A DNA stretch of 53,741 bases, the filler included, from Squatina squatina (lineage: Eukaryota), in NCBI GenBank assembly GCA_031763465.1. It is 3 parts of 3 records of this genome, joined end to end, with 100 filler letters (N's around TTAATTAATTAA, not from the genome) between each part and the next. Parts side by side here need not be neighbours in the genome. Positions count along the whole stretch, not along the records: positions 24,487 to 39,936 come from JARFOE010000080.1; 2 more parts are not named here. One strand, 5' to 3'. Positions 13,045 to 34,580 of this stretch are shown one piece after another. The notes beneath the pieces are model-generated. The model made no database searches. It saw only the letters and a program-made list of their open reading frames with translations, and was not told where the DNA came from. Positions within the stretch are counted from its first letter, which is position 1; each line of letters starts with the position of its first letter. Position numbers and translations under genes: made by a program.

Positions 13045-13315
13045 TGGCCCTGAGAGCAATGAAATGTTGGGGTTCAGGCCCTTGGGTGCTCTCCCTGAGA
13101 GCAGTGACATGTTGGGGTTCAGGCCCTTGGGTGCTCTCCGAGAGCAGTGACATGTTGGGGTTCAGTTCCACGGGTGCTCTCCCTGAGAGCAGTGACCTTG
13201 TTGGGGTTCGGTCCCATGGGTGCTCTCCCTGAGAGCAGTGACATGTTGGGGTTCAGTCCCACGGGTGCTCTCCCTGGGATCAGTTACTTGTTGGGGTTCC
13301 GTCCACTGCGTGCTC
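13045..13315. repeat. Intronic minisatellite, about 45-bp unit, about 6 copies
   Basis: GAGAGCA anchors at 13052, 13097, 13140, 13185, 13231. Confidence 0.9.
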
Positions 13316-14339: not shown

Positions 14340-14672
14340 ACTGTAACACCTGTTCACTGAATGTACTGGAGTCTGGAAATATATCTAATTGTACACTGTA
14401 CCCAGTCTGTAATATCTGTTCACTGTATACACTGGAGTCTGGGAATATATCTAACTGTACACTGTACCCAGTCTGTAATATCTGTTGACTGTACATACTG
14501 GAGTCTGGGAATATATCTAACTGTACACTGTACCCAGTCTGTAATATCTGTTCACTGTACATACTCTAGTCTGGGAATATATCTAACTGTGCACTGTACC
14601 CAGTCTGTAATATCTGTTCACTGTACATACTCTAGTCTGGGAATATATCTAACTGTACACTGTACCCAGTCT
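14340..14672. repeat. Intronic minisatellite, 66-bp unit, about 5 copies
   Basis: CACTGTACCCAG at 14394, 14460 and onward; 22-aa periodicity in the spurious ORFs. Confidence 0.92.
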
Positions 14673-14803
14673 GCTGTATTTACTGATACAGAAATTATGG
14701 GCTGTTTGCCGAGTCCAGTTACACAGACAGCGGATATTAACCTGTGTCCATCCACCTTCCTCTCTCTAAAATATTTAACATGATGTCATTTTTATTTCCC
14801 CAG

Positions 14804-15348
14804 TCCCAGCCTCACTGACCCTGGACCCAAACACAACGTATCGTCAGCTCATCCTGTCTGAGGACCGGACCAGTGTGAGACCCGGTGACAGAGAATTACA
14901 GCTTCCTGATATCCCGGAGAGATTCGATCCATGCCCATGTGTCCTGGGATCACAGGGATTCACATCAGGGAAACACTGCTGGGAGGTGGAGGTCGGGGAC
15001 AAGACTGATTGGGACATGGGTGTGGCCAGAGAGTCAGCCAATAGGAAGGGACGGGTAACACTGGGACCTGAACATGGATACTGGGCTGTGTGGCTGAGAA
15101 ATGGGAATGAATATAAAGCTATTGACAGCACATCTGTCCCACTGAGCCCGAGTGTGAAGCCCAGGACCATCGGAGTTTACCTGGACTATGAGGGAGGACA
15201 AGTGTCCTTTTACAATGCTGATGATATGTCCAATCTCTACACTTTCACTGACACATTCACTGACAAACTCTTCCCTTATTTCTATCCTGGATCGTGGGAT
15301 CGGGGTAAAAATGCTGCTCCTCTCAAACTGCGGCATTTCGACCGGTAG
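14804..15348 (+). CDS. TRIM-B30.2 gene (TRIM39/TRIM35/A33-like), terminal PRY-SPRY exon
   Basis: CCCCAG|TC; [70 protein letters not shown] stop. The RING/B-box exon is not visible. Confidence 0.93.
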
Positions 15349-17176: not shown

Positions 17177-18102
17177 TTATATTTTGCGCTGCTGATCCAA
17201 TTTAAGTAACTTAAATATCTGAGCAAAGGGATATTTTATCATATTCTTTAATGCATATCTGAATTTAGTTTGGGCCACTGCATAAATAACCGTATTAGTG
17301 CAGGAACTCAAACGCTGGAGCATATATCCAGTTTGTTCCATGATGGTAAAAGAATCTGCATAATCTGTTCGGAACAACTGAGTATCTGTAATTTGTACAC
17401 AAATTTCATAAAAGAAAGTTACCATCCATAAGAGGATAAAGCTGCCTGAAATTGCAAGCATTAAAATGATGGATTTCCTTCGGTTCACCATCTCTTCATC
17501 ATGATGACTCTCACTTTTGTTGCTCCCTCGAAGTCCCCTTCTGACTCTCATAGTCTGCACAATGTGCCTGATGGTCAGAGCATTGAGCAGTGCAATCAAC
17601 ACGAATGGAGCGAAAGGTGTTGCAATAGCGTGAAGCCAGGAGTAGGCCATCCAAATAGGCATGGTGTAGAAGTTAGGTTTTACAACACAGAACCATTGTA
17701 TTTCACCAATTGTTTCACCAGCTTCCTTTAAAAAGTAAAGTGGAATGTTCAGTAAAAAGCTCAAAGCCCACACCATTGTTATAATCACAGCTGCAGTTTT
17801 CTCGGTGCAATATTTGACTCTCAGACTCTGGGAACAAATGGCAATGAATCGATCAAAGGTGAAGACGACGGTTAACCAGACAGAACAAAAAACGGCAGAA
17901 ATTGCCAGGCTGAAATTGAGACGACAGATGAGAGTATAGTTCAGGAATGAATGTGGAAAATAAATCACTTTAAACTCATCCAGAATTACATCAAATATCA
18001 GGACCAGTAGATCTGCTGCTGCCATGGCCACCAGGTAACGGGTGATACATGCGGAGAGACCGCACTTTCCACGGGAGAGAATCACAATTGTGAATAAATT
18101 CG
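17177..18102 (-). CDS. Class A orphan GPCR, GPR139/GPR142-like, exon 2
   Basis: Acceptor TTGTAG|CG at 18103/18102; ANLFTIVILSRGKCGLS, YLVAMAAADLLV, VWLTVVFTFDRFIAIC, KYCTEKTA, PFVLIALLNALT, SSCTNTVIY; hydrophobic TM segments; TAA stop. Confidence 0.92.
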
Positions 18103-18804
18103 CTACAATAGGGAGAGAAAAATAAAGGTAATCATTGTAGCCCGAACAAACTGGCGGGCAGAAACGAGAGTTTATTAAATGCATCAGTTATTTTCTACTC
18201 CTCAACTCATGCTCTCTGGTCGACGCATTATGTATTTCCTTTGCTGTCAATGATTCTGACCATTCCTTTTTTGCTCACATCTGCTTTCTCCTGCCCCTCT
18301 CCATATGTCTCACTTTGTGTCTGTGTCGCGTTAATCATCTCTGCCTCTCTGTCTGTCTCTCTTTAGCCGGGATCTTTGTATTGGGGTATTTTCGGCGAGA
18401 ATGGCTATGGGGGAGGTGTTAGTACACAACATTAACCAGATGATTGCTCTGAATACCCATTCGCATAGCCTGAGCTGTAGATTGGGACTGGTTGGGGAGC
18501 ACACTCGTGCTGGCATCAGACAATGGGTATAATTCAATTACAAGGATGTGAACCTTAAAAGGGGCATGTCAGAATAAGGGGACAAGAACTCAAGATCCCT
18601 CGGGAGATTCAAAGCTATCTCAATCAGTTATCCTTCTCGATCAGAGTGATGAAGTTATGGAGCACGCTGAAGAAACAGGCAAATATGTAAAGAAAGGGAG
18701 CCCGAGATTCGGGCACAAGTTAGCAGACATGAGACTTGACAATAAGGAGAAAAGAGTAAATAAGTCAATCTCGCACAGTTTGCTTTACTGTGCACATGTA
18801 AATT

Positions 18805-24386: not shown

Positions 24387-24486
24387 NNNNNNNNNNNNNN
24401 NNNNNNNNNNNNNNNNNNNNNNNNNNNNNNTTAATTAATTAANNNNNNNNNNNNNNNNNNNNNNNNNNNNNNNNNNNNNNNNNNNN
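24387..24486. other. Artificial scaffold linker (44N-TTAATTAATTAA-44N)
   Basis: Palindromic 12-mer with a stop in all six frames, centred in exactly 100 nt. Confidence 0.95.
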
Positions 24487-25562
24487 TGAACTCTGAGGGA
24501 ATTAGCTTTGGAGCAGGAGGAATGAATGCCTCTTGTGATCTCTGGATGTGTAATGGTAAACCCAAGTTGTGTTGAAGTTCCTTTTGAGTAATATGCCATT
24601 CTAATTCACTTCTGACTTTCTTGCCAATGAAAGCGGTTTCCATGGCTACAGGCTCTATTTGGCCTCTACTTGCTATGATTGCTGGAAGCACAGGTGGAGC
24701 TTTGGGAATCATTAATTCCAATGACTCTTCATACAGAGTTTTAAAGCCCCAGAGGTGAGAAATGAGTTTGTTCTTCAAGTTCATTTCCACGTGTTCAAGA
24801 GCCTTCTGTTCAAAAAACGGTATAAATGTTGGTCGTGGTTTTTTAAAACCTTCACCAGGCGCAATAAGTTTTGGTAAAGTTTTTTTTGGTGCTGGGGGGT
24901 ATGTTTTTTTGTAGGATTCTTGTACACTTGCTGGCAAATTATCCAGTTTTATATCTAGACATTGTTTTCTTAAACACATAGCTAACTGATCTTTGTGTTC
25001 TGATTTTACGATATTAAGCATAGGAAACATTCCTTTTTCGTTTTCTTTCATGAATTTGATAGCTTGTTCACACTGTGGTGCAGGCGATTGCCCTCCCTTG
25101 AGTTTTAAACAAACTGTTTTAAACTTACTATTTAGCAATGCCTCATTTTCTTCTGATATTTTTAATTGTGGCTTGATATTTTCTACTGATGGATCTGATA
25201 TTTCTAATTGTGGCTTGATATTTTCTACTGATGGATCTGATATTTCTAATTGTGGTTTGATATTTTCTACTGATGGATCTGATATTTCTAATTGTGGCTT
25301 GATATTTTCTACTGATGGAGCACGAGGCAAAAAACTCTCTAATGACAACTGAACAACCTTCGGGAGAGCCCACCGATCATTTATGATCCGTTTCTTTACA
25401 TTCAGCTCCAATTTTTCTTTACTCTCAGCAGCGAAAAATGCAGGCTCAATTGGAACAACTTTTATGTCAACATCAGGCTGTGGGTTGAACTCTGAGGGAA
25501 TTAGCTTTGGAGCAGGAGGAATGAATGCCTCTTGTGATCTCTGGATGTGTAATGGTAAACCC
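24487..25562 (-). CDS. Open coding segment of a repetitive protein with SPATA31/FAM205-like motifs; one 999-bp repeat unit
   Basis: Stop-free across the whole contig; three LExxxxxKxxxxxWGLP..xxxS..F.PxAP motifs; identical 77-nt ends 999 bp apart. Confidence 0.75.
25152..25318 (-). repeat. Coding 42-bp tandem repeat x4 (PSVENIKPQLEISD)
   Basis: Four near-identical in-frame copies within the ORF. Confidence 0.95.
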
Positions 25563-29865: not shown

Positions 29866-30612
29866 TGAACTGACTGTGGTGGCAGAGAACACCAAGAGTC
29901 TAGCTCTGAGGACCCCCATCAAGATACAGCTCATAGATCAAAACGACAATTCTCCCATCTTCACCAACTCTTTCGTTGAAGTGACCATTGAAGAGAACAA
30001 CCCTCCCAACAGCTTCCTCATTAAAGTGAAGGCCACAGACGATGACAGCGGAGAAATGGGGACCATCACTTATGCTCTGGGCCCAAATGTGCCTCCCATC
30101 TTTGTTTTAGATAAATTCAGTGGGGGGTTGACAGTGTCAACATCCTTGGATAGAGAAGAACAGGAAAAGTACAGACTCATCATCAGAGCTATAGATGGTG
30201 GGTCTCCACCCCGAGAATCCACCGCCACGGTTCTTCTCACTGTCCTTGATACCAATGACAACAGCCCCAGGTTCATCAACAAGGACTTCAATTTCTTTGT
30301 TCCCGAAGACTATCCGAGTTTTAGCGAAATCGGTGTGATTGGGGTTATCGATCCTGATGTTGGAAATAATGGCTGGGTGGCCTTGTCCATAATCAATGAC
30401 AGTGAGCACTTTGTCATAGACACGGGCAAGGGGAAGCTCATGGCGAATGCCCCCTTGGACAGGGAACAGCAGAGCTCTTACATTCTCTGGGTTCAAGCAC
30501 TGGATGGAGGAGAGCCTGCTCTGTCTGCTGTTGCTAAAGTGACAGTGCTTCTAATAGATGTCAATGATAATCCACCCTTGGTCTTGTTCCCTCAGTCGAA
30601 CCTCTCTTTTCT
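29866..30612 (+). CDS. PCDH20: Protocadherin-20, ectodomain repeats (partial)
   Basis: DQNDNSP, LDREEQEKY, DTNDNSPRFINKDFNFFVPE, NGWVALS, LDREQQSSY, NDNPPLVLFPQSN closely follow the recalled PCDH20 sequence. Confidence 0.9.
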
Positions 30613-30712: not shown

Positions 30713-31362
30713 TGTGGCTACAGTGACAGTGCTTGTAATAGCTGTCAATGATAATCCACCCTTGGTCTTGGTCCCTCAGTCGAACCTCTCATTTCTTCTG
30801 GTGCTCCCATCCACAGTCCCTGGCTCTTCCATTACTGAAGTGTATGCTGTTGATAAAGACACAGGAATGAATGCTGTCATTGCTTACAGCATCGTTGGCC
30901 ATAGAGGACCCCGTCCAGAGACCTTCGTCATTGACACAGGCACTGGTAACATCACATTGCATGAGGCTTTGGTGAAGAATGACCATGGATTGTACAGACT
31001 GTTAGTCAAAGTCAGTGATCATGGTTACCCAAAACCACTTCACACGACAGTTATAGTCAACCTTTTCGTCAATGAAACGTTAAGCAATGAGAGCTACATA
31101 GAAAGCCTGCTGAGAAAAGATCCTGACATCAGGATAGAGGAAAGCCTACCAGAGACAAGGACTGACCCTTTTCATACAGAGCTGGACATATTTCCATGCC
31201 AGATTGTGATGATAGCACTATCAGCTTTATGTTTTGGGCTTTTGACCTTGGTATTTGCTTTGGTGTGCTACATTTCACTTAGAAAAAGGAAGCACAGAAG
31301 TAAAGAGTACAGTGTTGCAGAGGTTGAGATCCCATTAAACAAAAAAATAGCTTCATATACTT
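30713..31362 (+). CDS. PCDH20: Protocadherin-20, last cadherin repeat, TM segment and short tail (partial)
   Basis: EVYAVDKDTGMNAVIAYSI, GPRPE, LLVKVSDHGYP, SNESYIESLLRK, hydrophobic TM, EVEIPL; the stop lies in the gap. Confidence 0.9.
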
Positions 31363-33739: not shown

Positions 33740-34580
33740 TGGGCGCCAAATTCGTTTTTTTTTGCCGACATTAAACTGGTGCTAAAAGGACGTTAAGGGC
33801 TGAATGCCGATTTTGGGCATTAAATTTATCGCTGCGAAGTTCGGCCCCCATTAATGCTGGCACTAAATGGGCACTAACCCTTTAAGGCTCAAAACGCAAA
33901 GTTCAGCATCAGAGTGACTCAATGACGTCATCAGTGGGCGCAAGGCCCAAAATGGCCGCCCGCTGTAGAATTCGATAAGGCTGCTGAGCCTTAAAACTAG
34001 CTGTGACAACACCCCATTTTTTGAGCATTGACATGCCTCATCTGATGACTTTCAGTGCTATTGAAGGCACTGGNNNNNNNNNNNNNNNNNNNNNNNNNNN
34101 NNNNNNNNNNNNNNNNNNNNNNNNNNNNNNNNNNNNNNNNNNNNNNNNNNNNNNNNNNNNNNNNNNNNNNNNNAGTGAGGCTACGAAGTAAAGAGTCATG
34201 TGATGAGCGCGTCACGGAGCCGCTGAGCAAAGATAAAATTAAGCCTAATCTCACTGCTTTAACTTGCGCTCGATTCTCTGAGCTGAGGCCTGTGTCACCG
34301 CTGAAAAATCCAGGTGTTTTCACCGCTGGGTTTAGTGCACACTGACACTGTTAAATATCGGGCGGGCGGCCATTTTGGGCGCCGCGCGCACTTATGACAT
34401 CATAGCGCCATGATAAAGTTTCNNNNNNNNNNCATGGAGCCTCAGAGGCCTTGCGCCAGTTTGGCGCCGGCGTGAATGGGACCCGAATTTTGCACCCGCA
34501 TTTGGACGTCCAAAATGCATGTACGCCCGTTTTGTGCTGATTTTGCGCCAAAAGTTTACCCGCGAATTGGACGCCCCAAA
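33740..34580. mobile_element. GC-rich foldback/MITE-like element with long imperfect inverted arms (spans two gaps)
   Basis: 33922-33963 is an imperfect reverse complement of about 34361-34403; the termini TGGGCGCCAAATTCG and CGAATTGGACGCCCCA are also inverted. Confidence 0.5.

Follow-up and report, generated by a model that had tools for sequence, protein, structure and literature searches.

The window examined here is a stretch of 53,741 nucleotides from Squatina squatina (GCA_031763465.1). It is made up of 40 short contigs, separated mostly by gaps of 100 N, and two artificial linkers, one of them directly beside the contig that is the subject of this report. That contig (24487..25562, minus strand, in JARFOE010000080.1) is 1,076 nt long, has N gaps on both sides and is looped, consisting of a 999-nt period and a 77-nt terminal overlap. 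The 77-mer which opens the reading direction (25486..25562, minus strand) occurs as an identical second copy where that direction closes (24487..24563, minus strand), and the longest terminal overlap is exactly 77 nt. A k-mer length of 77 is a default of SPAdes. The looped contig alone overlaps itself by 5 nt or more among the 40 contigs of the window, the two 12-nt linkers being left out of that count.

One minus-strand frame (24488..25561) has no stops in 358 codons, ie a 333-aa unit plus 25 repeated residues, and remains open over the circular join; the other five frames contain between 6 and 34 stops. In 2,000 dinucleotide shuffles 333 open codons were never reached in any frame (mean longest 88, maximum 262). 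Within the limits of the contig, the intron-free stretch is 999 nt. A nested tandem repeat of 4.0 x 42 nt (97% matches), encoding four copies of a 14-aa sequence, is found at about 25151-25319 (minus strand), in a variable linker that is modelled with low confidence. Its longest exact self-match is 63 nt, so that it contains no repeated 77-mer; the idea that it forms a second collapsed loop was thereby rejected for k = 77. The self-overlap, the stop-free frame and the nested repeat had all been described in an earlier note on this DNA, and each was found as described. The note's claim that the unit is coding also holds.

The spacers at 24387-24486 and 39937-40036 consist of 44 N, a 12-nt TTAATTAA-type linker and a further 44 N, unlike the plain 100-N gaps, which we take as a sign that pieces were joined in a second step, either guided by a reference or arbitrarily. 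Synteny with the neighbouring contigs was rejected as a source of evidence and the neighbourhood treated as uninformative, because unrelated genes are encoded there. A URGCP/very-large-GTPase-type coding sequence is present at 7702-9087 on the plus strand (PF25683, E = 5e-157), and URGCP-similar pieces, assigned by eye only, at about 5243-6871 on the minus strand; their opposite orientation suggests paralogues or scrambled scaffolding. A PRY/SPRY exon at 14782-15345 (plus strand) is presumably TRIM-like, and a rhodopsin-family receptor at 17180-18187 (minus strand) has an intact-looking single-exon frame of 336 codons. Two stop-free cadherin contigs (29867-30610 and 30714-31361, plus strand) contain nearly the same stretch ending PQSNLSF, and are for that reason overlapping alleles or paralogues rather than consecutive pieces. 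Minisatellites with periods of 27-66 nt occur at 7241-7599, 9536-9646, 10940-11202, 11241-11562, 13048-13315, 14341-14673 and 46250-46388. The contigs at 34433-34789 and 34890-35569 have 23 nt in common, at the end of one and the start of the other, across a 100-N gap. No further pieces of the gene were found in the window, a tblastn search with 18 proteins giving no match outside the looped contig.

Family and motifs of the 333-aa unit

The translated unit matches a single Pfam family, FAM75 (PF14650, the SPATA31 family), with E = 1.2e-22 and 81.3 bits compared to a gathering cut-off of 24; no other family was reported up to E = 10. On this match the unit is a SPATA31/FAM75-family module. The earlier note was right in proposing a coding giant, but had missed the family, the position of the unit as module 3, and one of its motifs. 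PF14650 is carried by all 17 relatives from the longer-protein search, which include sturgeons, paddlefish, whale shark, sevengill shark, smooth-hound, coelacanth and turtles, and by all 13 proteins from a search with one of the giants. Among the latter are proteins of Scyliorhinus canicula (LOC119977343, 5,132 aa), S. torazame (5,137 aa), Pristiophorus japonicus (4,605 aa), Leucoraja erinacea (loci LOC129698331 and LOC129698430; proteins of 4,777 and 4,631 aa), Narcine bancroftii (3,764 aa), Latimeria (4,716 aa), turtles and lizards. In a representative-library search 178 proteins reached E <= 0.001, and the best of these are 2,400-5,100 aa long. No relatives of similar length (196-627 aa) were obtained among 7,999 scored candidates, in a search that was insensitive, since the representative-library search had produced some short matches. 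The best score in the ESM Atlas was 0.83, to FAM75 clusters, and is a lead, no more. DUF4599 was not found in any of the four giant homologues scanned.

Four related motifs (A to D) are present in the unit, and not three as had been noted earlier. Motif A (aa 314-346, 24524..24622, minus strand) lies over the loop join. Motif B (aa 45-77, 25331..25429, minus strand) is a predicted helix-loop-helix, as are motif C (aa 187-220, 24902..25003, minus strand), which has no Pfam match on its own, and motif D (aa 252-284, 24710..24808, minus strand), which has a weak FAM75 match (E = 0.005). Motifs A and B fall in order on the FAM75 profile, at 146-181 and 198-246 respectively. AlphaFold2 models were made of the window unit (28 rows) and of a Mustelus protein (42 rows). 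Both contain four helix-loop-helix motifs per unit, each modelled as two helices, the first about 19-22 and the second about 10 residues long, with a short loop between them. The pLDDT of a 10-residue block reaches 84 and 91 in the two models, the linkers are of low confidence, and global confidence is low in both (pTM 0.20 and 0.24). A compact domain of four hairpins is supported by neither. The three matches to solved structures by sequence (best E = 0.29) were rejected. With the model of the window unit, Foldseek gave no matches at E <= 0.001, and VIA-align gave a best Z of 3.7, to generic helices, with none of 48,161 chains at Z >= 5; given the low pTM of that model, these searches say nothing on the novelty of the fold.

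Module order and the position of the window unit

The named shark, ray and coelacanth relatives reach 4,600-5,140 aa and contain 8-12 complete modules of about 290 aa. Applied to the five giants from sharks and skate, a profile built from 42 seed units detects 10-12 complete modules per protein, and partial ones in addition. Successive modules start 268-302 aa apart (mean 290, 43 intervals in four proteins), and neighbours are usually 34-59% identical. A quick tree was built by maximum likelihood from 80 units, Narcine, Huso, P0019 and Latimeria being represented by their first three, two, one and three units, respectively; in it the shark and ray units cluster mostly by position rather than by species. 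Several of the six units of P0022 (2,405 aa) lie at the base of the elasmobranch positional clades of the quick tree, and from this placement part of the module order may go back one step beyond the split between sharks and rays. The earlier note's giant protein is borne out, but its size is ancestral, the orthologues being giants already, with mostly diverged modules.

The window unit is 75, 65, 63, 62 and 61% identical to module 3 of the Pristiophorus, the two Scyliorhinus and the two Leucoraja proteins, and 37-52% identical to their other modules. The module-3 clade which includes it has an SH-aLRT value of 99 in the 80-unit tree; its placement as sister to Pristiophorus has a value of only 80. 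By these values the unit is the positional orthologue of elasmobranch module 3, and the DNA is that of an elasmobranch and probably of a squalomorph shark. Its 333 aa correspond to the 296 aa of Pristiophorus module 3 with an insertion of 42 aa and a loss of 5 aa, both indels being in frame. Set against all five module-3 orthologues, the insertion consists of three extra copies of the nested 14-aa repeat.

The shark and ray giants thus share the module but differ from the contig in what follows it. After the module-3 tail, all five orthologues have YQ(K/N)S, which marks the head of module 4, whereas the window unit reads HIQRS, the head of module 3 itself. The opening 77-mer is this head and belongs to the second helix of motif A, and motif A is read from a module-3 tail into a module-3 head. 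With Pristiophorus as the reference, diagnostic sites favour a module-3 tail by 10:1 up to the join and a module-3 head by 5:2 beyond it. For the other four orthologues, which are more distant, the tail sites are weaker (6:4, 7:3, 5:5 and 5:5) and the head sites agree (8:2, 5:0, 9:4 and 6:2). Because the module-3 tail runs into module 3's own head, a recent, lineage-specific duplication of module 3 is the most likely interpretation of the sequence.

The point at which the contig breaks falls in the zone of this switch from tail to head. A TTG Leu codon (24563..24565, minus strand) takes the place of a Trp that is present in 61 of 75 family motifs, and the terminal 77-mer begins one base past the middle base of that codon, ie the break abuts the base which distinguishes Trp from Leu. 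By our own estimate this would occur by chance in about 1% of cases; the coincidence was noticed after the fact. It is where the graph would branch if a neighbour coding for Trp ran into the loop.

The unit itself has the appearance of constrained coding sequence. Compared with 85 other units, it keeps 38 of the 41 columns conserved at 85% or more, and its three deviations are in the middle of the range for the other units (0-17). When random substitution was simulated to 11, 17 and 23% amino-acid change, the frame stayed open in 188, 36 and 10 of 2,000 trials, respectively; the end branch of the window unit in the quick tree is 0.22 long. Long-standing pseudogeny is unlikely for the unit, and recent loss elsewhere in its gene is possible.

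Near-identical neighbouring modules, as proposed for the contig, are found in 7 of 23 named homologues, in which sequence one module apart is identical at 92% or more over 200 aa, a measure taken without gaps and therefore apt to read too low. These are the Narcine, Huso and five turtle proteins, all of them database models. The Narcine bancroftii protein (P0023) is the only one of ten named elasmobranch proteins among them, the other nine having diverged modules. It has seven complete 294-aa copies of module 7, approximately 100% alike, at about residues 1522-3656; the model ends soon after the array, and either could be incomplete. Huso huso has tandem modules which are 92-96% alike, and the turtle FAM75 modules are 92-100% alike. 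These arrays resemble the one proposed here in being near-identical, in-frame and tandem. They differ in that Narcine has amplified module 7 rather than module 3, and in that the sturgeon and turtle arrays belong to separate lineages. P0019 (5,126 aa) contains 18 complete and nearly identical 271-aa units, only two of them distinct, and its unit is identical to a named Acipenser sinensis unit at 269 of 271 residues; it would represent a very large homogenised array of sturgeon type. In P0006 and P0011 the FAM75 modules run into unrelated-looking C-terminal sequence, labelled by eye, which we take to be retroelement-like and coiled-coil; both models are probably gene-prediction fusions at assembly breaks.

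Copy number and alternative explanations

Module 3 has probably been duplicated recently, in tandem and in frame, in the long coding sequence of an elasmobranch SPATA31/FAM205-like gene; the contig would be a single period of that duplication, of which there would be at least two copies. By unequal crossover between the conserved motif-A blocks on either side of it, module 3 would have had its tail connected in frame with its own head, and a protein that had about 4,600-5,100 aa to begin with would have gained 333 aa with each copy. The near-identical copies would have formed a loop for a de Bruijn assembler of short reads, which would have written one turn and one further k-mer. In a toy graph with k = 77, arrays of 2, 3 and 8 tandem copies gave the same two edges (1,004 and 149 nt) and a path of 1,076 nt with a 77-nt overlap whatever the copy number; coverage alone differed. 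At least two near-identical in-frame units, as the earlier note proposed, are the most likely reading of a loop in which a tail is joined in frame to its own head. The very large, recently homogenised exon it also proposed does not follow, the path being the same with two, three or eight copies.

That path is equally obtained from one copy and a shared tract of 77, 120, 250 or 500 nt. The gene could on this basis have a single module 3, gene conversion or a partial duplication having replaced the head of the next module with at least 77 nt of module 3's own, and the assembler having written the shared tract and the unique part. The 77-mer falls in the block where the module is most conserved, and the diverged modules kept in nine of the ten named elasmobranch proteins also fit such an origin. 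Repeats shorter than the library insert are, however, normally bridged by read pairs, and a bridged short repeat would not stop the contig at both ends; amplification of whole modules has its precedents in the seven homologues described above. Duplication of the whole module was preferred for these two reasons, and a shared tract alone is considered unlikely. The low identity of neighbouring modules disfavours conversion, though it disfavours crossover as well.

The fragmented state of the window, with its 40 short contigs, artificial spacers and unrelated genes, is what might be expected if the loop were a chimeric read join, a misassembly or an extrachromosomal circle of 999 nt. An artefact of this kind is nevertheless very unlikely, as the join is in frame and in exact module register, and lies inside a motif common to neighbouring modules. 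The break lies beside a plausible branch base and not at an arbitrary point, which also speaks for a true boundary and against a circle cut at random. The loop might instead derive from a dead or dispersed paralogue, the duplication then being without effect on the protein. Two gene models exist in both Leucoraja (skate) and Mustelus, the window unit has unusual residues at the three deviating columns and at the Trp site, and the ends of the gene are outside the contig. This origin is judged highly improbable in view of the open frame, the in-frame indels and the normal conservation, and collapsed paralogues alone do not join the tail of a module to its own head.

Possible role and significance

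The mammalian SPATA31 (FAM75A/Vad1.3) and FAM205A proteins share the FAM75 domain with the window unit. Excerpts of PMC5338094 describe SPATA31 as having one long coding exon, and the mammalian proteins as being of 130-157 kD with one FAM75A domain and as having spread by segmental duplication of the whole gene. The elasmobranch proteins differ in being three to four times longer and in growing by intragenic modules. Spata31 is a binding partner of syntaxin and beta-actin, and knockout of the gene causes infertility, according to PMC5338094 and PMC6920530. FAM205A is described in part of PMC13423385 as acrosomal, with predicted membrane helices, one of them N-terminal, and as giving infertility and a disrupted acrosome in the mouse knockout. 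SPATA31E1 is enriched in spermatids and was seen in germ-cell nuclei, and not in the acrosome, in the sections of PMC11646353 consulted. Several fish and reptile relatives appear to resemble FAM205A at the N-terminus. Of 13 homologue models, 7 have a hydrophobic 19-mer (KD >= 1.9) among their 300 N-terminal residues, two of these being models of the same Latimeria locus, and the other six have none.

The earlier note's pointer to testis is apt for a protein of this family, and a function of the shark protein in sperm, with expression to match, would be expected from its mammalian relatives. By the same analogy there is about an even chance that it acts as a membrane-tethered, multivalent scaffold of the spermatid head, of beads-on-a-string form. 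An N-terminal membrane helix would anchor the spermatid or sperm-head scaffold, in which short helix-loop-helix motifs would follow one another in a long series, separated by flexible linkers rich in proline. The motifs would bind a partner repeatedly and would not fold together into a single globule; to judge from mouse Spata31, that partner would be actin or the acrosomal membrane machinery. Extra modules would for this reason alter length and valency without breaking the protein.

In mammals SPATA31 is a family of sperm genes known for its fast evolution, and in humans it has grown by gene duplication. Judged from these comparisons, the family reaches sharks, rays, sturgeons, coelacanth, turtles and lizards as strings of four-hairpin modules, 3,000-5,000 aa long, and appears far older and more repetitive than in the literature found. 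The databases already tag the giant models with the Pfam domain, and one Latimeria model is named FAM205A-like. The literature found on the family deals with mammals only, and none was found on the fish and reptile giants, their fixed module order or their repeated amplifications; subscription journals and unread supplements may differ. The searchable supplements of PMC5338094 gave no match, its Additional File 1 on other members could bear on novelty, and excerpts of PMC13752377 make no mention of the SPATA31/FAM75 family.

The contig itself is modest, being one more amplification event in a short-read assembly. A wider reading, which we regard as doubtful, is that it samples a large array of module 3, with at least five copies, variable in copy number and evolving in concert, in a sperm-head protein of well over 6,000 aa. 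An old SPATA31 scaffold of jawed vertebrates would on this view have been taken over several times independently, the array being one such case; the scaffold's module order would otherwise have been conserved from before sharks and rays parted, and mammalian SPATA31 would be what is left of it in reduced form. If this is true, a male reproductive protein has undergone runaway homogenisation repeatedly, of module 3 here, of module 7 in Narcine, and again in sturgeons and turtles. The minimal hairpin would provide a defined unit with which to find the binding partner of the FAM75 domain. Modules kept in position, together with the sudden amplification of single ones, would make the family a clean test system for concerted evolution and for sexual selection on sperm proteins.
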